Translations under genes and position numbers: made by a program
Shown here: in pieces, positions 6,088-46,883 of the stretch
Numbering within the stretch: the first letter of the stretch is position 1
Layout: each line of letters starts with the position of its first letter
Notes under the pieces: generated by a model
What the model was told of the DNA's origin: nothing
What the model saw: the letters and a program-made list of their open reading frames with translations, nothing else
Database searches by the model: none
Assembly: GCA_021810605.1 (NCBI GenBank)
Contig: JAJZIL010000001.1
Location: forward strand, 604-64,603
Direction: 5' to 3'
From: a bacterium
Lineage (GTDB): Bacteria > Patescibacteriota > Dojkabacteria > JAKAPS01 > JAJZLI01
Length of the DNA: 64,000 nt

Positions 6088-7749
6088 TTACATCATACCA
6101 CCCATTCCTCCCATTCCACCCATATCAGGTGATGCAGGAGATTCTGGTTGAGGAATATCAACTATCACAGCATCTATTGTAAGATACATTGAAGCTACTG
6201 ATGCAGCATTCTCAATTGCAAGTCTAGTTACTTTTACAGGATCAATAATACCAGCTTTAATCATATCCAATTGATCCTCACCTGTAAAAACATTATAACC
6301 TTTTCCATTCCCAACAGATGATCTTACAATAGCTTGTCCAGATACATCTGGAGATCCTGCATTATCAATAATTTGTATTGCAGGATATTCTAATGCTCTT
6401 TTTACTATATCTACTCCAACCATCTCCTCAATAGATAAATCTTTTAATTTTGCCTTACCTTCTGCACTATTTAGATAAATTTTTGCATTAACTAAAGCTA
6501 CTCCACCTCCAGCAACAATACCTTCTTTAACTGCAGCTCTTGTAGCTGATAAAGCATCTTCTATCCTATCTTTCTTCTCTTTTAACTCAACTTCAGTAGC
6601 TGCTCCAACTTTTAATACTGCAACTCCTCCTACAAACTTAGCAACTCTCTCTTGTAATTTTTCTTTATCATAATCTGAAGTTGTATCATCAATCTGTTTT
6701 CTTAAACTTTCAACTCTATTTTCTATATCAGCTTTCTTTCCAGCTCCATCTATTATAGTTGTATCATCTTTAGTTATAACTACCTTTTTACATCTACCTA
6801 AATCTTCAATTTCAGTAGTATCCAATTTTAAACCAATCTCTTCAGAAATTAATTTTCCTCCAGTTAAAATAGCTATATCTTCTAACATAGCTTTCTTTCT
6901 ATCACCAAAACCAGGAGCTTTTACTGCAGCAACATTTATAATACCTCTAAGTTTATTAACTATTAAAGTAGCTAGAGCTTCTCCTTCTAGATCTTCAGTA
7001 ATAATAAGTAAATCCTTTTTACCAGACTGAACTAATTTTTCAATAATAGGTAGTAAATCTTTTATTGCTGAAATTTTAATATCTGTTATAAGTATATATG
7101 GATCTTCTAATACAGATTCTTGTCTTTCAGAATCTGTTACAAAATATGGAGATACATAACCTCTATCGAAATTCATACCTTCAACATGCTCAATTGCATT
7201 CTCTATTGTTCTAGAATCTTCAACAGTTATAACTCCATCCTCTCCAACTTTTTCCATTGTCTCACCAATAAGTTTTCCTATCTCACTATCATTATTAGCA
7301 GAAACAGTAGCAACTTGAACTTTCTCCTCTAGAGAAGATATTTGTTTTGCTTGTTTCTTTAAGTTTTCAACAACAATCTCAACAGCTCTATCTATTCCTC
7401 TTTTAATTGACATCGGATTAGTTCCTGCAGCAACATTTTTAACTCCTTCAGTAATTATAGCTTGAGCTAGAATTGTAGCTGTAGTAGTTCCATCTCCTGC
7501 AAGATCTGCAGTCTTTACAGCAGCCTCTTTTATAAGTGATGCACCAACATTTTCAATTGGATCTTCTAATTCAATTTCTTTAGCTACACTAACTCCATCT
7601 TTAGTAACGTGTGGAGATCCATAACTTTTTCCAATAGCAACTAATCTGCCTTTTGGACCTAATGTTATTTTTACAGAATCAGCAAGTGTATCTATACCAA
7701 CTTTTATTTTTGCTCTTGCTTCTTCGTTTAATACTACTTTTTTTGCCAT
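6088..7749 (-). CDS. groL: chaperonin GroEL (Cpn60)
   Basis: 553 aa. [12 protein letters not shown]..., [15 protein letters not shown]-type segment, and the C-terminal [10 protein letters not shown] tail diagnostic of bacterial GroEL. Confidence 0.97.
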
Positions 7750-7774
7750 AATAAAAATTTATCTAAAATAATAA

Positions 7775-8089
7775 TTATTGAATAATACCTAATACATCAT
7801 CTTCTGAAAGTATTAAATACTCTTCTTCATCTAAACTAAATTCAGTAGGAGAATATTTTTTAAATAAAATTTGATCTCCAATCTTGACTGTAAAAGGAAT
7901 TTTTTCTCCTTTTTTATTCTTTCTTCCCTCCCCTAAAGCAATTACTGTTCCTCTTTGAGGAGATTCTTTTGACACAGTATCAGGAATAAAAATTCCTGTC
8001 TTTGTTTTATTTTCTTCAACAATAGGCTTTACAACAATCTTATCTCCTATTGGTTTAATATTTAAACTGTTTGACATATTTTTGTACAA
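7775..8089 (-). CDS. groS: co-chaperonin GroES (Cpn10)
   Basis: 104 aa. KPIGDKIVVKP ... mobile-loop region, immediately upstream of groEL. Confidence 0.95.
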   Translation of the reverse strand: MYKNMSNSLNIKPIGDKIVVKPIVEENKTKTGIFIPDTVSKESPQRGTVIALGEGRKNKKGEKIPFTVKIGDQILFKKYSPTEFSLDEEEYLILSEDDVLGIIQ

Positions 8090-39348: not shown

Positions 39349-41448
39349 ATGTATAGAAAACTTTTATCCTTTGCATCATTATTATTTATTCTTTTTTTTA
39401 TTACAGGAAAGGTATTTGCAAGTACTACACCTCCCCTATCTGCTTATGAAGGAAATAGTTATCTAAATTCTTTATATAGTAATAAAAAATTTTCATTTAT
39501 AAAAGCTACTGTAAAACCTAATCCATATAAATCTTTTGCAAGTTATGGTCCTCAAGGACTTCAGAAAGAAGTTATGGGTTTTGCTCCATATTGGGATCTA
39601 ACAGATAATGCCTATCTCAATTATCCATATAGCAATCTTACTACAATTGATTACTTTGGAATAACATCTGATGGTAATGGTAATTTTGGAACTAATGCAG
39701 GAGGAGGAGATGGTTATGCAGGATTACAGTCATCACAATTTGTAAATATGGTAAATATTGCTCACAATAACAATATTAGAGTAATCATTACTGCAAAAAT
39801 TTTTAACCTTACTGATATTGAAAGTGTAGTTAACTCTACTACTAACTCTCAGAATTTTATTAATAATATAATATCTATTGCAAAACAATACAGTTTACAA
39901 GGAGTAAATATAGATTTTGAATATCAACCATCTCAGGGAACACCTGATACAACAACAATAAATAACTTTACTACCTTTGTAGGAAATCTCACAACACAGA
40001 CACATAATGCTATTCCAGGATCATTTGTAACAGTTGATGTATTTGCATCTTCGGTTCGATGGCCAGGATCTTTATTTAATGTTCCTGCTCTTGCTAATGT
40101 AACAGATGCTCTTAATGTTATGGCTTATGATTACTACACACCTTCCTCTTCTGTAGCAGAGCCTGTAAATCCATTTACAGGATATAATGATGGAGCAGGA
40201 CCTTTATGGTATGACGTTAGACGTACAATATTAGATTATGCAGCAGCAATTAATCCAAATAAGATAATTCTTGGTATTCCATATTATGGAAATGATTATC
40301 AAACAACAAATGATTCTCAGAATGCCCCTACAGTCTCAGGGACTGGAATAAATGAGCCTTATGGTCAGACAAATGACCAATATAAGAATCAGAATACTAA
40401 ACATTGGGATTCTCAAAGTTCTACCCCGTGGTATGCATATTGTTATACTTCAAATAATACTCCTCCTAATTGTGCTTCAGGAGACCAGTTAAGAGAGGGA
40501 TATTATTCTAATTCTACTTCACTAGGATTAGTTTACTCACAAGTACTACAGTCTAATCTTAGAGGTGTAAGTATTTGGACCTTAGGTTATGAACAACCAT
40601 CGAGTAGTCTTACTGATGTAATAAATAATTATTTTACTGATAACTCTATTTTTTCAAAAATCAATAGTGCCTATTACATACTCTCTTCAAATGGACAAGT
40701 TCTTCCATTTGGAAATGCTAATTATTATGGTGATATGTCATATATAAGTGGAGCACCTAACAGTAATGCTGTAGCAATGGCTACTCTTCCATCTGATACA
40801 GGATATTATATATTAACTCAAGATAGTGGAATATATACATTTGGTTCAGCTAATTTTTATGGTAGTGTATATAATATTCCAAATGCCCCAGTGAAAACTC
40901 CAGTTACTATAGCTACAACACCTAGTGGAAATGGTTATTATGTGTTAACTGCGGATGGAGGGGTATATACGTTTGGAGATGCTCAATTCTTTGGATCATT
41001 ATACAACATACCTTCCTCTGCTGTTCCTGATAGAACCCCTATAGCTTTTGCAGTAACTCCAGATGGAGGAGGTTATTATATAATGACTTCAAATGGTGCT
41101 ATATATACATTTGGGGATGCTCAATTCCATGGATCAGTTTTTAATATTCCTGCAGCACCGAATAAAAATGCTGTTAACTTTGCACTCACTCCTAGTGGAA
41201 ATGGATATTATATTACAACTCAAGATGGAGGGGTATATACATTTGGGGATGCTCAATTCTTCGGTTCTATGTATAATATAAATGGTGCTCCTAATAGAGT
41301 TCCTGTATCATTTTCTGTTACATCTAATAATCTTGGATACTATATAGTAACTGCTGACGGAGGTGTATATACTTTTGGAAATGCAACCTATGATGGAACA
41401 GCAATAGGTATATTTGCAAAAACAATCGGTCTTAATCTTTCTCCTTAA
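39349..41448 (+). CDS. secreted GH18-family glycoside hydrolase-like domain + 6x ~44-aa C-terminal repeats
   Basis: 699 aa. Signal peptide. GFAPYWD, SLQGVNIDFEYQP (the DxxDxDxE region with D-F-E retained), LNVMAYDYY, KIILGIPYYGNDY and GVSIWTLGYEQ follow the GH18 blocks. The C-terminal repeats have consensus YYILTxDGGVYTFGDAQFFGSxYNIP. Confidence 0.65.
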   Translation: MYRKLLSFASLLFILFFITGKVFASTTPPLSAYEGNSYLNSLYSNKKFSFIKATVKPNPYKSFASYGPQGLQKEVMGFAPYWDLTDNAYLNYPYSNLTTIDYFGITSDGNGNFGTNAGGGDGYAGLQSSQFVNMVNIAHNNNIRVIITAKIFNLTDIESVVNSTTNSQNFINNIISIAKQYSLQGVNIDFEYQPSQGTPDTTTINNFTTFVGNLTTQTHNAIPGSFVTVDVFASSVRWPGSLFNVPALANVTDALNVMAYDYYTPSSSVAEPVNPFTGYNDGAGPLWYDVRRTILDYAAAINPNKIILGIPYYGNDYQTTNDSQNAPTVSGTGINEPYGQTNDQYKNQNTKHWDSQSSTPWYAYCYTSNNTPPNCASGDQLREGYYSNSTSLGLVYSQVLQSNLRGVSIWTLGYEQPSSSLTDVINNYFTDNSIFSKINSAYYILSSNGQVLPFGNANYYGDMSYISGAPNSNAVAMATLPSDTGYYILTQDSGIYTFGSANFYGSVYNIPNAPVKTPVTIATTPSGNGYYVLTADGGVYTFGDAQFFGSLYNIPSSAVPDRTPIAFAVTPDGGGYYIMTSNGAIYTFGDAQFHGSVFNIPAAPNKNAVNFALTPSGNGYYITTQDGGVYTFGDAQFFGSMYNINGAPNRVPVSFSVTSNNLGYYIVTADGGVYTFGNATYDGTAIGIFAKTIGLNLSP
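40668..41445 (+). repeat. six tandem ~44-aa repeats (YY[IV]LTxDGG[VI]YTFGDAQF[FH]GS) forming the C-terminal domain of the GH18-like protein
   Basis: Repeats read directly from the translation. The same module is present in the next gene. Confidence 0.8.
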
Positions 41449-41451
41449 ATT

Positions 41452-43566
41452 ATGAAAAAATTTGTATTTATATCTATTATTATCTCTATTTTTGGAATAT
41501 CTATTATTAAAATTTATGCTTCTAGTATAAGTGTTAATAATAGTACTATTAATGAATACAACAAACTTACCCTTAACAGAAAATATACTACTAATTCAGC
41601 CATAGTTGAGACTAATAATAATAAAATAGGTTACTCAAATATTGTAAATGTTAATCAAAAAATAAAAATAATAAAGAAGCCTAATAATGAAAGTTATAAA
41701 AGTTTTATGACTAATCTTATATCTAATAAGAATATTGTAAGTGTATCACCAAATTATACGAGAAATTTCTCTTCTCTTCCTAATAATATAGATATAAATC
41801 TTCAAAAAAATTTATTTGATATTAATGCTCCTGTAGTTGATAATTCAGGGTTTACAACATCTTTAGGAGGAAGTACTAATATAAAAATAGCAGTACTAGA
41901 TTCTGGAGCTGAGTATCAAAATTTTACAAACACATTAGACTCAAATACTTATGCACAAGCACCTGCATTATCTAATATTAATATAGTTGATCCCTATAAT
42001 GCTTTAGCTGTATATGATGGACAAACAATAAATGAATACAATCCTTATGATAGTCTAGGACATGGAACATATGTTACTGGAATAATAAATTCTAGTACTA
42101 ATAATGATTCGAATGGATCTCAGCAGTATGGTGTTGCAGGAATCGCATTCAATACTAGTATTATGCCTATAAAGATAGGAAACAGTAGTGGTATTCCACT
42201 AGGAGCAGAACTATTAGGAATTCAATGGGCTATTAATAATGGCGCTAATATAATTAATTTAAGTATAGCTGGTAATACTCCTTACAGTACAGAAGAAAAT
42301 TTAATAGAGCAGGCAATATCAGATGGAATAATAGTTGTAGCATCTTCTGGAAATGAAGGTGTTTCTTCTATTGATTATCCTGCAGGGTATCCAAATGTTA
42401 TAGCTGTAGGAGCATCAAATTCACAGAATGCTTTAGCTGGATATTCAAATTATGGATGTAGTAGTGACAATAATTGTCAGACATTAGTTGCTCCAGTTGG
42501 ATATAATAATCCTTTAACTTTTCAACAAAGTTATACTGGATTTAACAGTGGAACAGTATCTAGCTTCTCTAGTTTTTCTAATCAGAGTGCGATTGGAACA
42601 TCATTTTCTGCCCCTCAAGTTACAGCTGCAATAGCTTTATATGAGTCAAAATATGGAATACAACCACTTAGTGTAATACAGAGTGTTTTAGAAAAAAGTT
42701 CTACAAATATAGGAAGTCAATTTCAATTTGGAGATGGGCTTTTAAATATTAATTCAATGCTAAGTAACGCTCCTACAAATAGTAGTAATACCTCATCATA
42801 TAATATTCTCTCTCAAAGTGGATCTGTTTATGCAGAAGGTAATGCTCCTAATTACGGAGGGATTAATAATATAAACCAAAATTATGGAAAAGCAGTTGAT
42901 ATAGTCAATACCTATAATAATCAAGGTTATTATATACTGACATCTTCAGGATCAGTTTATACATTTGGGAATGCTCAATTCTTTGGTTCTATGTATAACA
43001 TAGTAAATCCTCCAGATAGAACTTCAATAAAACTCATTCCTACTTTAAATGATAAAGGTTATTACATATTAACTGCAGATGGAGGTGTCTATACATTTGG
43101 AGATGCTCAATTCTTCGGGTCATTATATAATATTCCTTCCTCTGCTATACCAGATAGATCCCCAGTAACATTTTCTTTAACATCAGATAATCTAGGTTAT
43201 TATATTATTACAGCAAATGGAGCTGTTTATACATTCGGCAATGCTCAGTTCTTTGGTTCTGTGTTCAATATACCTAATGCTCCAGTAAAAACAGCAGTTG
43301 ATTTTCAAATTACAAATAATAATCAAGGTTATTATCTACTAACAGCTGATGGTGCAATCTATACATTTGGAAATGCTCAGTTCTTTGGTTCTATGTACAA
43401 TATATCTAAAAGCTCAATTCCATCAAACATACCACAAAGTTTACTTATTACAAATAATAATCAAGGTTATTATATTTTAGAGCAAGATGGTGCAGTTTAT
43501 ACATTTGGAAATGCTCAATATGAAGGGAGCATTTATGGTATAATATCCTCATCAATAACATATTAA
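41452..43566 (+). CDS. secreted subtilisin-like serine protease (S8) + 6x ~44-aa C-terminal repeats
   Basis: 704 aa. Signal/TM at the N-terminus. Catalytic triad contexts IAVLDSGAEY (Asp), HGTYVTGII (His) and GTSFSAPQVTAAIAL (Ser). C-terminal repeats YYILTADGGVYTFGDAQFFGSLYNIPSSAIPDR. Confidence 0.8.
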   Translation: MKKFVFISIIISIFGISIIKIYASSISVNNSTINEYNKLTLNRKYTTNSAIVETNNNKIGYSNIVNVNQKIKIIKKPNNESYKSFMTNLISNKNIVSVSPNYTRNFSSLPNNIDINLQKNLFDINAPVVDNSGFTTSLGGSTNIKIAVLDSGAEYQNFTNTLDSNTYAQAPALSNINIVDPYNALAVYDGQTINEYNPYDSLGHGTYVTGIINSSTNNDSNGSQQYGVAGIAFNTSIMPIKIGNSSGIPLGAELLGIQWAINNGANIINLSIAGNTPYSTEENLIEQAISDGIIVVASSGNEGVSSIDYPAGYPNVIAVGASNSQNALAGYSNYGCSSDNNCQTLVAPVGYNNPLTFQQSYTGFNSGTVSSFSSFSNQSAIGTSFSAPQVTAAIALYESKYGIQPLSVIQSVLEKSSTNIGSQFQFGDGLLNINSMLSNAPTNSSNTSSYNILSQSGSVYAEGNAPNYGGINNINQNYGKAVDIVNTYNNQGYYILTSSGSVYTFGNAQFFGSMYNIVNPPDRTSIKLIPTLNDKGYYILTADGGVYTFGDAQFFGSLYNIPSSAIPDRSPVTFSLTSDNLGYYIITANGAVYTFGNAQFFGSVFNIPNAPVKTAVDFQITNNNQGYYLLTADGAIYTFGNAQFFGSMYNISKSSIPSNIPQSLLITNNNQGYYILEQDGAVYTFGNAQYEGSIYGIISSSITY
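42795..43563 (+). repeat. six tandem ~44-aa repeats, same family as 40668-41445, forming the C-terminal domain of the S8 protease
   Basis: Protein-level identity to the GH18-gene repeats is high. The nucleotide sequences have diverged. Confidence 0.8.
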
Positions 43567-45158: not shown

Positions 45159-45614
45159 ATGCATTTTAGTATACTAACTTATATAGCTTCTACGGGCATA
45201 TTAGCCGTTTTTTTTCTAGGTCTTCTTCTTATTACAGCATTAATTAAAAAGCTTAATTTAAAAATTTGGATAAAATATCAGGTTCCTGCAACAAAAATTC
45301 ATATAACATTAGGTTGGCTAAGTTTTATATTTGTAGTAATACATATAAGTCTTGCTTTAACTATATTTCAAATTGGAGATATAGTTTTTTGGGCAGGATT
45401 AGTTGCAGCTTTCTTTTTCTTCCTTGCCTTTATTACTGGTGTTGTAAAGAAGTTTAATTTTAAATTATTTCATAGATATCAAATTCCTTCATCAAGATAC
45501 CATTATATATTAGGTTTTACAGCATTATTTTTTATATTAATACATATGATACTAGGACTTTTAATTTTTCATTATACTTTTGTTTTAACAATTTTAAGGA
45601 TATTACATGTTTAA
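45159..45614 (+). CDS. 4-TM membrane protein with two His-x13-His helices (putative di-heme b, ferric-reductase/NOX-TM-like)
   Basis: 151 aa. An internally duplicated 2-TM unit. KIHITLGWLSFIFVVIHISLAL and RYHYILGFTALFFILIHMILGL each carry two His spaced 14 residues apart. Confidence 0.5.
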   Translation: MHFSILTYIASTGILAVFFLGLLLITALIKKLNLKIWIKYQVPATKIHITLGWLSFIFVVIHISLALTIFQIGDIVFWAGLVAAFFFFLAFITGVVKKFNFKLFHRYQIPSSRYHYILGFTALFFILIHMILGLLIFHYTFVLTILRILHV

Positions 45615-46293
45615 AAAACTAATACATACAAAGAGAAAAGCTACAATTATAAATAAAGAACATATATCAGGAAATCTTATAAAAATTGATTTTAGAACAG
45701 ATCATATAGATTACATTCCTGGCCAATATATAACTTTATATATTGGGAATTTAATCCCTAGAAATTATTCTATTTATAGAGTCTCTGAAGATGGAAAAGT
45801 ATTTTCTATAATAGTAAATATTAATGGTAATGGTGTTGGAAGAAGAACAATAAAAGAATTTATTGTCTACGAACAAGTATATTTTATTGGACCAATTGGA
45901 GATTTTAGATTTAATAGAAATGATAATACTCATAATAAATGGTTTATTGCAACTGGAAGTGGGATATCTCCTTTAATTCCAATGATACTTGAAAATAGAT
46001 ATAAATATAAAATCAAGTTTTTTTTCTCTGCAAGATACAAAGAAGATATTTTTAATATGAAGATAAATGGAATTGACACCATAATATCTCTCACCCAAGA
46101 GAATAGCAATTGGAATGGCAAATTTGGAAGAGTTACTGACACACTTTTAGATGAACTTAAAAAGATAGATAACAGAGATGATATATCTTTTTATATATGT
46201 GGAAATCCTAAGATGGTAACTGATACAAAAAATTTTCTTATTAATCAAAATATAGATTTATCAAAAATATATTTTGAAAAATTTGGATTTTAA
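45607..46293 (+). CDS. FNR-family FAD/NAD(P)-binding oxidoreductase (ferric reductase/NOX dehydrogenase-domain-like)
   Basis: 228 aa. RNYSIYR (RxYS FAD motif), FIATGSGISP (GTGxAP-like NAD(P) motif) and YICGNPKMV (CG motif). 8-nt overlap with the upstream membrane protein. Confidence 0.7.
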   Translation: MFKKLIHTKRKATIINKEHISGNLIKIDFRTDHIDYIPGQYITLYIGNLIPRNYSIYRVSEDGKVFSIIVNINGNGVGRRTIKEFIVYEQVYFIGPIGDFRFNRNDNTHNKWFIATGSGISPLIPMILENRYKYKIKFFFSARYKEDIFNMKINGIDTIISLTQENSNWNGKFGRVTDTLLDELKKIDNRDDISFYICGNPKMVTDTKNFLINQNIDLSKIYFEKFGF

Positions 46294-46334: not shown

Positions 46335-46363
46335 TTGACATAATTCTATAGGTTTTATATAAT
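46335..46363 (+). promoter_or_regulatory. consensus sigma70-type promoter TTGACA-N17-TATAAT upstream of 46395 gene
   Basis: TTGACA at 46335-46340 and TATAAT at 46358-46363 with a 17-nt spacer. The gene start is 32 nt downstream. Confidence 0.4.
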
Positions 46364-46394: not shown

Positions 46395-46883
46395 ATGAAT
46401 AACATAGAACAATATTTAAACCAAGTTCCTTTTGATCAAGATAATCCTGATCATAATAAAATTACATATCCAGAAAGAAAAGAAAAAATTACACAGAATA
46501 AATATTCAAACCAAGTTCCTTTTGACCAAGATAATCCTGATCATAATAAAATTACATATCAAGAGAGATTTGATAAAGAAAAAATTACACCAAATATTGA
46601 GGTATTACCTAGTAATCAAATAAAACCTACTGTTCTTTTTGATCAAGATGCACAAGATTTAAAAGAAACAAAATTGTTTGATCAAGATAATCCTGATCAA
46701 AATAATATAGCTTCTTCAAGGAGAATTAATAAAGAAAAAATTCCACAAAATATTATATTATTACCTACTAATCGACCAAGACCTATGGGTCTTTTTGATC
46801 AAGATGCACAAGATTTAAAAGAAACAAAATTGTCTAATAAGGTAAGAAAAACTCTTTCATTAAGGATAAAAAGAAATAAATAA
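46395..46883 (+). CDS. repeat-containing acidic hypothetical protein (FDQD-motif repeats), no signal peptide
   Basis: 162 aa. QVPFDQDNPDHNKITY occurs twice and LFDQDAQDLKETKL twice. Six FDQD(N/A) motifs in total. Confidence 0.5.
   Translation: MNNIEQYLNQVPFDQDNPDHNKITYPERKEKITQNKYSNQVPFDQDNPDHNKITYQERFDKEKITPNIEVLPSNQIKPTVLFDQDAQDLKETKLFDQDNPDQNNIASSRRINKEKIPQNIILLPTNRPRPMGLFDQDAQDLKETKLSNKVRKTLSLRIKRNK
46416..46834 (+). repeat. intragenic near-identical nucleotide repeats (copies at ~46416-46470 and ~46506-46560; second pair at ~46631-46678 and ~46787-46834)
   Basis: The first pair differs by 1 nt over about 55 nt. The second pair is identical over about 45 nt. Confidence 0.7.

Follow-up and report, generated by a model that had tools for sequence, protein, structure and literature searches.

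The 64,000-nucleotide stretch of bacterial DNA considered here (contig JAJZIL010000001.1 of assembly GCA_021810605.1, assigned to the Dojkabacteria; below referred to as the window) harbors two overlapping genes on the forward strand, which encode a 151-residue membrane protein (gene 1) and a 228-residue flavoprotein of the ferredoxin-NADP+ reductase (FNR) superfamily (gene 2). Together, the two proteins probably constitute a transmembrane conduit, in which electrons from NAD(P)H would be transferred via FAD and two hemes b to an acceptor on the extracytoplasmic side of the membrane. The electron-transfer logic of such a system is known; what is new is its predicted miniaturised, split form, i.e., a putative cytochrome with four, or only two, transmembrane (TM) helices and an FNR encoded by a separate, overlapping gene. 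Decisive and independent evidence for the pairing of the predicted cytochrome with an FNR is found in the gene clusters that surround half-size relatives of the membrane protein.

The 151-residue protein has four long hydrophobic helices, for which hydropathy analysis and an AlphaFold2 (AF2) model agree. An earlier note on this DNA had proposed that the protein is a duplicated unit of two TM helices, and this proposal is borne out: residues 13-70 align with residues 80-137 with a BLOSUM62 local score of 141, to be compared with 31.8 ± 5.7 in 500 shuffles (z = 19). It had also been noted that helices 2 and 4 each carry two His residues 14 positions apart. The pattern H-x13-H is indeed found exactly twice, as His48/His62 (KIH...VIH) and His115/His129 (RYH...LIH), in predicted helices 2 and 4, respectively, where His48 is located at the start of TM2, immediately after a K-rich loop. 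Among the 55 open reading frames (ORFs) of at least 100 residues in the window, just one other, encoding a 733-residue tRNA synthetase, contains two such pairs.

No substitution of any of the four His residues is seen in the 4-TM orthologues, the most distant of which share 64% identity, and all eight units that were aligned (N-terminal halves, C-terminal halves and half-size proteins) retain the His pair. Loss of these residues in orthologues had been named beforehand as a possible refutation; instead, a pair is kept in all sequences of a 26-sequence alignment, in which the invariant positions are W78, G80, K97, N100, H115, G119 and H129. The 22 half-size relatives, which are about 30-39% identical, all carry the matching pair as well, and a single-unit profile composed of N-halves, C-halves and half-size proteins displays eight invariant columns, two of which are the His residues. 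The two long loops contain five K/R residues each, compared with 0 or 1 charge on the nearly uncharged opposite faces (the N-terminus, the QIGD loop and the C-terminal tail), which by the positive-inside rule would place both long loops on the cytoplasmic side. In loop 1, a K..N motif is invariant across the units, and the AF2 model displays a short amphipathic helix at residues 35-40.

A word-indexed homologue search with the 151-residue protein returned only three relatives, all of them close. When 1.84 billion representatives were searched exhaustively using HMMER, a four-sequence profile also yielded three matches, two of which are only 82 and 85 residues long and represent single copies of the 2-TM repeat unit. 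The family of the 151-residue protein is truly narrow. A search based on one 2-TM unit as the profile retrieved 22 proteins of 77-85 residues (two of them are named Candidatus Yonathbacteria in the source records), i.e., the unit also occurs as a stand-alone protein in metagenome-assembled genomes (MAGs) of the candidate phyla radiation (CPR) type. It is the second repeat unit of the 151-residue protein that aligns with these stand-alone proteins.

The loci fetched, which carry numbers of the type L001 below, were classified using hidden Markov models (HMMs) built from the cassette proteins described in the next paragraph, and one metagenome scan supplied 19 further loci. The half-size cytochrome gene overlaps with an adjoining FNR gene in 25 loci; the two genes share 14 nucleotides in the loci measured, compared with 8 nucleotides in the clade of 4-TM proteins. 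Because the G+C content of the classified half-size loci spans 0.26-0.61, the association of cytochrome and FNR is not an accident of a single lineage. The sole exceptions to this adjacency are two contig-truncated loci and the pair L007/L008. In L007 (439-3534) and L008, from an organism with 26% G+C, genes for a response regulator, a histidine kinase, FMN_bind, ApbE and an 85-residue bis-His protein are found in this order, and no FNR is present in the cluster.

A complete cassette, in which the cytochrome and FNR genes are followed by a gene for a protein of unknown function and those for FMN_bind and ApbE, was found in 15 loci with a G+C content of 0.36-0.55. The members of the cassette are a bis-His 2-TM protein of 77-82 residues, an FNR of about 240 residues, a two-TM protein of 154-181 residues, an FMN_bind protein and ApbE. 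In L011, for example, an 82-residue bis-His protein is followed by an overlapping 240-residue FNR, a 155-residue two-TM protein, a 203-residue FMN_bind protein (6435-7046) and a 308-residue ApbE (7059-7985), and this five-gene order is repeated in L012-L017 with different neighbours on both sides. In the five cassette FMN_bind proteins that were inspected in full, the flavinylation motif is NIQGVSGATYTS in four and NIQGVSGATYMS in the fifth, with SGAT invariant. Two FMN_bind genes are present in 4 of the 15 cassettes (L024, L031, L033 and L036), where the second, encoding about 350 residues, is located between the first and the ApbE gene (e.g., L024:7012-8070). By the criteria of PMC8238504, i.e., an apbE gene and an FMN_bind gene with [S/T]GA[S/T] in the same cluster, the predicted cassette is a flavinylation-associated electron-transfer system in all 15 loci. 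In the literature searched, no description of the five-gene cassette and no paper connecting Patescibacteria with ApbE were found. The cassette, which is the most informative context of the half-size relatives, was absent from the earlier note.

The flavoprotein half of the pair is more readily classified. The 228-residue protein exceeds the Pfam gathering scores of FAD_binding_6 (PF00970; 30.8 vs 21.1 bits) and NAD_binding_1 (PF00175; 38.6 vs 22 bits), and is predicted to combine a barrel for FAD with a domain for NAD(P)H binding, with no Fe-S or other additional domain. The RxYS, GTGxAP-like and CG motifs that had been attributed to it are recovered as RNYS, GSGISP and CGNP, and an aromatic residue is found at the C-terminus (FGF). 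The NCBIfam Fre model aligns over nearly the full length of the protein with a sub-cutoff score (E 7e-11; 41.9 bits vs a cut-off of 230), further matches were obtained to the MmoC and BenC reductase modules, and the closest PDB chains are those of T4moF, NqrF, MMOR, cytochrome b5 reductase and BenC. By these predicted features, the gene 2 product is a genuine FNR module of the Fre/BenC/NqrF type. It shares 24% identity (E 4e-21), common N- and C-termini and all cofactor motifs with the cassette FNRs. Another FNR match, P0012, shows 39% identity; the most distant match, P0013, is part of a ferredoxin-linked system and was set aside as uninformative.

The ORF coordinates confirm an overlap of eight nucleotides between the two genes (ATGTTTAA), as had been noted before, with the reading frames being different and on the same strand. 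All sequence-level statements of the earlier note hold. An AAGGA Shine-Dalgarno-like site at 45596..45600 resides within the 3' end of gene 1, 7 nucleotides ahead of the gene 2 ATG, and together with the overlap this putative site fits translational coupling of the two genes. The ratio of nonsynonymous to synonymous substitution rates (dN/dS) is 0.09-0.17 for gene 1 and 0.15-0.24 for gene 2, which indicates that both are under purifying selection. In the 4-TM clade (64-99% identity), the gene pair and the 8-nucleotide overlap are kept in every locus, the overlap being identical in L001, L002, L003, L005 and L010; the downstream genes vary, and in some loci an AAA_14 gene is inserted upstream of the pair. 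In public gene calls, the 151-residue ORF is omitted at L004:4553-5008 and L042:553-1008, although identical DNA is called in sister contigs, i.e., the gene is easily overlooked by annotation.

From the above data, the following mechanism may be outlined. The gene 2 product would be a soluble cytoplasmic flavoprotein that oxidises NAD(P)H, stores the electrons on FAD and docks on the conserved K..N..K/W..Q.P cytoplasmic loops of the membrane protein. Within the latter, an inner heme b would be held by His48 and His115, and an outer heme b by His62 and His129, in each case with one ligand from helix 2 and one from helix 4. This predicted bis-His ligation is based on the invariance of the His residues, their 14-residue spacing (about 21 Å along a helix) and the family resemblance discussed below. 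The hemes would thereby be arranged as they are in cytochrome b, NOX/MsrQ-type proteins and DUF4405/FezC. Electrons would be transferred from FAD to the inner heme, further to the outer heme and finally to an acceptor outside. The 77-85-residue relatives are presumed to form homodimers, and their acceptor would most likely be the membrane-anchored FMN_bind protein, flavinylated by the ApbE of the same cassette. In the window lineage, the unit has been duplicated and fused and the FNR retained, with FMN_bind and ApbE not linked to the pair. Candidate acceptors in this lineage are thus a flavoprotein whose gene is located elsewhere, or else O2, a metal chelate or some other small oxidant. The features of the pair are collected in Table 1.

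Table 1. Coordinates of the gene pair, its predicted functional elements and related features (window positions unless a locus is given)
Feature	Coordinates	Strand	Basis and comments
Gene 1, four-helix membrane protein, 151 residues	45159..45614	+	ORF, helices, duplication, His residues, dN/dS
Repeat unit 1 (residues 13-70): TM1, K-rich loop, TM2 with His48 and His62	45195..45368	+	self-alignment, unit alignment
Loop 1 (residues 29-47, IKKLNLKIWIKYQVPATKI), predicted cytoplasmic, candidate reductase docking surface	45243..45299	+	5 K/R, 0 acidic; docking role putative
Codon of His48, which with His115 would provide the axial ligands of the cytoplasmic-side heme	45300..45302	+	invariant; ligand role predicted
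Codon of His62, which with His129 would provide the axial ligands of the outer heme	45342..45344	+	invariant, 14 residues past His48; role predicted
Repeat unit 2 (residues 80-137): TM3, K/R-rich loop, TM4 with His115 and His129	45396..45569	+	self-alignment
Loop 3 (residues 96-114, VKKFNFKLFHRYQIPSSRY), predicted cytoplasmic	45444..45500	+	5 K/R, 0 acidic; all 26 sequences have K97 and N100
His115 codon, predicted ligand of the cytoplasmic-side heme	45501..45503	+	invariant in 26/26 sequences
His129 codon, predicted ligand of the outer heme	45543..45545	+	invariant in 26/26 sequences
Candidate translational-coupling junction: AAGGA, gene 2 ATG (45607) and 8-nucleotide overlap with the gene 1 stop	45596..45614	+	sequence
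Gene 2, FNR-superfamily flavoprotein, 228 residues, predicted cytoplasmic	45607..46293	+	Pfam, motifs, dN/dS
RNYS (residues 52-55), RxY[ST] FAD-binding motif	45760..45771	+	regular expression; R[NA]YS conserved in cassette FNRs
GSGISP (residues 117-122), NAD(P)H-binding glycine motif	45955..45972	+	regular expression; aligns with ATG[ST]G[VI][AS]P of relatives
CGNP (residues 198-201), CG motif of the NAD(P)H domain	46198..46209	+	regular expression; YICG[NV]P conserved
Promoter consensus TTGACA-17-TATAAT of the next gene, boundary marker outside the module	46335..46363	+	12/12 match, consensus only
Complete five-gene cassettes of half-size relatives (15)	L011 (4983-7985), L012-L017, L022, L024, L025, L028, L031, L033, L036, L037		CPR-type MAGs

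The resemblance of the membrane protein to known families is consistent and remains below all thresholds. For the 151-residue protein, Pfam gives only sub-threshold matches, i.e., to DUF4405 (E 1.2e-3), Ni_hydr_CYTB, Cytochrom_B561 and Ferric_reduct, and NCBIfam gives no match. The best single match is that to DUF4405 (PF14358), with 19.8 bits vs a cut-off of 26.7, where residues 12-65 align with positions 8-64 of the 66 in the model; the two conserved His residues per two-helix domain of about 60 residues that are expected for this family are found as an invariant pair in every unit. The Ferric_reduct (PF01794) score of the window protein is 14 bits vs a 28-bit cut-off. When the 26 family members were scanned, Ferric_reduct was matched by 26, Ni_hydr_CYTB by 16, DUF4405 by 13 and Cytochrom_B561 by 4, with best E-values of 9.6e-5 for Ferric_reduct and 1.2e-4 for DUF4405, all of these matches being sub-threshold; no non-heme Pfam family matched more than 3 of the 26. 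The AF2 model, for which the mean confidence (pLDDT) increased from 57.9 with a 4-sequence alignment to 73.6 with 26 sequences, is at this moderate confidence a four-helix bundle. When compared with the PDB using Foldseek, the top ranks are enriched in di-heme membrane cytochromes, although no match is significant; they include the TM domain of NOX5 (E 0.74), FdnI, Dcytb, b561 (TM-score 0.66-0.68) and b6. These results suggest a consistent likeness of the putative cytochrome to bis-His di-heme cytochromes, with no curated-family threshold reached. The best superpositions of the model were those with cytochrome b561/Dcytb (4o6y; TM-score 0.66-0.68, rmsd 3.1-3.6 Å, probability 0.95), with an E-value of about 1, which is not significant. 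These proteins are transmembrane di-heme electron carriers, as predicted for the window protein. In contrast to the latter, b561 is a six-TM protein in which each of the four His residues is located on a different helix, and it uses ascorbate.

Components of the predicted pair have counterparts in several characterised systems. In E. coli, MsrQ (also named YedZ) and the flavin reductase Fre have been referred to as a "two-component NOX-like system" (PMC5676040 and PMC8238504, citing Juillan-Binard et al. 2017). Also there, a bis-His di-heme membrane protein is fed by a separate Fre-type reductase of about 230 residues, composed of FAD_binding_6 and NAD_binding_1. However, MsrQ has six TM helices, passes the PF01794 threshold and feeds the molybdoenzyme MsrP, and its gene is not adjacent to fre, whereas the window protein has four TM helices in 151 residues, fails PF01794 and has no MsrP neighbour, and its gene overlaps with that of the reductase. 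"MsrQ-like" proteins, in which a 6-TM PF01794 domain is fused to a C-terminal PF00175 domain, are found with FMN_bind and ApbE in 1437 clusters, mainly from Actinobacteria (Meheust et al. 2021, PMC8238504). The half-size relatives share with these the predicted use of NAD(P)H, a flavin, two hemes and an FMN_bind protein flavinylated by ApbE. The MsrQ-like proteins are fused and have six TM helices, whereas the window family is composed of 2-TM proteins (presumed homodimers) or 4-TM tandems with a separate, overlapping reductase gene. In addition, unlike the fusion systems, the half-size cassettes carry an extra conserved membrane protein of 154-181 residues, and the window version has no FMN_bind or ApbE within 64 kb.

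A direct precedent for a 2-TM bis-His unit as one half of a di-heme bundle is offered by FezC. DUF4405, which the earlier note had assumed to be a non-heme family, is described in PMC11334425 (Huang et al. 2024) as comprising flavinylation-associated cytochromes, and binding of heme b was demonstrated there both for one such protein from Oscillospiraceae and for the ferrosome protein FezC. The latter contains two TM helices, and its heme sites were modelled via homodimerisation (PMC11334425; bioRxiv 10.1101/2020.01.10.902569). The repeat unit of the window protein has the size of one DUF4405 domain, and the 77-85-residue relatives are proposed to form homodimers like FezC. There are also differences: the characterised DUF4405 protein has six TM helices, and FezC harbors an HMA domain and operates in ferrosomes. 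Furthermore, the FNR partner is conserved in the family considered here, and the second refuting condition of the earlier note, a profile of a non-heme family such as DUF4405 with no FNR partner elsewhere, does not apply. No FNR partner for DUF4405-type cytochromes or FezC is described in PMC11334425 and PMC8238504 as far as these were read.

A number of results weigh against the proposed NAD(P)H-driven conduit. Every Pfam match of the membrane protein, both for the window protein and for all 26 members, falls below its gathering score. A sequence-profile search of the PDB with the membrane protein family gave 0 matches, and hhalign comparisons with the single sequences of E. coli MsrQ (E 0.73) and YodB were not significant, which leaves homology to PF01794 and PF01292 unproven. 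All Foldseek E-values are at least 0.5, and generic and designed four-helix bundles are also found in the list. The 4-TM-clade loci are otherwise syntenic with the window, which makes the linkage of the pair within this clade largely a matter of synteny by descent. Neither ApbE, FMN_bind nor the 154-181-residue cassette protein was found in the 64-kb window using tblastn and custom HMMs, which pick up the cytochrome and FNR only, and the combination of apbE and a motif-bearing FMN_bind gene that defines a flavinylation system is missing from it. Nor was any redox partner identified in the window by an [ST]GA[ST] motif scan or by Pfam annotation of 13 neighbouring genes, and there is no acceptor or heme-handling gene within the 64 kb. 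In the cassettes of L011 and L013-L016, ApbE has no evident signal peptide or TM helix and FMN_bind has K/R residues on both sides of its N-terminal TM helix, so that the ancestral acceptor could lie on either side of the membrane. Finally, CPR-type organisms as a rule do not harbor heme biosynthesis, in which case the heme would need to be scavenged.

The cofactor chain predicted for the pair is also that of NOX, DUOX and SpNOX, with two His residues, spaced 13 residues apart, on each of two helices and an NADPH-binding glycine motif. When compared with the features that define NOX proteins (Hajjar et al. 2017, PMC5676040), the pair displays two His-x12-14-His pairs on two TM helices and the glycine motif (GSGISP at residue 117). 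It departs from NOX in three of the five features: there are four helices with His on TM2 and TM4 instead of six with the pairs on TM3 and TM5, RNYS is found instead of the FAD motif H[PSA]F[TS][LIMV], and the membrane and dehydrogenase domains are encoded by two ORFs rather than being part of one polypeptide. In addition, NOX is built from FAD_binding_8 and NAD_binding_6, whereas the window reductase is predicted to comprise FAD_binding_6 and NAD_binding_1. Neither NOX nor ferric reductase is an appropriate name for the pair, even though it probably works like one. The earlier note had proposed a chain of the NOX type, from NAD(P)H via FAD to one heme and then a second. The chain itself is best supported (by the invariant His residues, the matches to di-heme Pfam families, the 25 FNR-linked loci and the ApbE/FMN_bind cassettes), but membership in the NOX/ferric-reductase family did not hold up, given the 4-TM architecture, the missing FAD motif, the unfused domains and the Ferric_reduct score.

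In a related alternative, the two proteins would by themselves suffice as a minimal NADPH oxidase or ferric reductase, with electrons passing from the outer heme straight to O2 (yielding superoxide) or to Fe(III)/flavin chelates and no protein acceptor involved. Such an activity would account for the loss of FMN_bind and ApbE from the locus. Neither the window nor any other locus of the 4-TM clade has an acceptor gene linked to the pair, but a partner could be encoded in the genome beyond the 64 kb. The extracytoplasmic face, composed of the N-terminus, the QIGD loop and the C-terminal tail, is tiny, which would leave the outer heme exposed. SpNOX illustrates that bacterial proteins combining a ferric reductase domain (FRD) with an FNR can reduce O2 and cytochrome c directly (PMC5676040), but the NOX-specific FAD motif and the six-TM architecture are absent here. 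The nearest relatives all use a cassette with a flavinylated partner, and this alternative is considered unlikely. For the outputs that had been suggested earlier, i.e., reduction of metal ions or quinones, Msr repair and production of reactive oxygen, the window offers no support, with no acceptor gene linked to the pair.

The chance is smaller still that the membrane protein is a non-heme anchor or metal-binder, in which the His residues would bind Fe, Cu or Zn or be structural, and that the FNR, located at the membrane surface, acts on a lipid-soluble or cytoplasmic substrate (e.g., a quinone, metal chelate or flavin) without any transmembrane electron transfer. All family assignments of the membrane protein are sub-threshold, which leaves room for such a role, yet the recurrent profile matches are only to di-heme families, and two His residues 14 positions apart on each of two helices, kept without exception down to about 30% identity, are characteristic of a di-heme bundle. 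In favour of this reading, the hosts are probably unable to make heme, and Fre-type proteins in other bacteria are free-standing flavin or iron reductases. Against it, DUF4405 and FezC bind heme b, and the association of the relatives with FMN_bind and ApbE points to electron export. That two unrelated genes are adjacent incidentally, or that gene 1 is not real, might be suspected from the synteny by descent in the 4-TM clade and from the failure of some gene callers to detect the 151-residue ORF (L004, L042), but is effectively refuted by the dN/dS of 0.09-0.17 for gene 1, the conserved overlap and the same pairing in 25 half-size loci of differing G+C content.

If the biochemistry of the proposed conduit holds, the pair would offer a minimal and compact model of heme-to-heme transmembrane electron transfer, with a wire of 151 residues, or of 2 × 77 residues, and a reductase of 228 residues. 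Such a system would be far simpler than NOX, MsrQ or PepSY-like proteins and suited to structural, mechanistic and synthetic biology work. Ultra-small CPR-type bacteria are thought not to have respiratory chains. The CPR/Patescibacteria would gain an NAD(P)H-driven extracytoplasmic redox activity as well as a need for heme, both invisible to standard annotation; the membrane gene has no Pfam domain and is sometimes uncalled. The known range of flavinylation-associated systems would be extended by a split, miniaturised form, and the half-size and tandem proteins would record a duplication-fusion step toward the four-helix di-heme core. A more far-reaching and rather doubtful extension is that the 77-85-residue protein and the 151-residue fusion are the smallest natural transmembrane di-heme wires, which with an FNR of 228-240 residues would form an autonomous NAD(P)H-driven reductase or oxidase in CPR-type hosts. 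The window pair would then operate with no flavinylated partner and use scavenged heme to reduce directly O2 or an oxidant that is external or stems from a host. The 2-TM unit would be a living example of the building block whose duplication could have given rise to the four-helix heme core of cytochrome b-, FRD- and NOX-type proteins.

The G+C content of the window is 25.8% overall and 24% near the locus, with values of 0.30-0.34 at 38-44 kb and 0.32 at 6-8 kb. A search of the whole 64 kb at Rfam gathering thresholds gave no tRNA, rRNA or riboswitch match. The neighbouring genes encode glycosyltransferases, a Wzm/Wzt exporter, a GH18 protein, an S8 peptidase, a class I tRNA synthetase and ribosomal protein L25. 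The upstream GT2 gene was considered as a functional partner and rejected, since its conservation reflects synteny by descent and an AAA_14 gene intervenes in L001 and L003. The perfect sigma-70 consensus found right after gene 2 suggests that the next gene is a separate unit and that the pair is self-contained; promoter-like sites overall are not more frequent than in shuffles, and the region around this site is very AT-rich. The promoter is followed by an ORF of 162 residues (46395..46883, +) with the repeats FDQDNPD.NKITY / LFDQDAQDLKETKL (DNA period of 156 nucleotides, two copies, 84% identity), which belongs to no Pfam family. This ORF is present in L040, L041 and L043, which are loci identical to the window, and absent in the more distant L002 and L010. 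The GH18 glycosidase (39349..41448, +) and the S8 subtilase (41452..43566, +) each end in about five RCC1-like repeats (GYYILT.DG.VYTFGNAQFFGS), and this pair of genes is conserved in L009.

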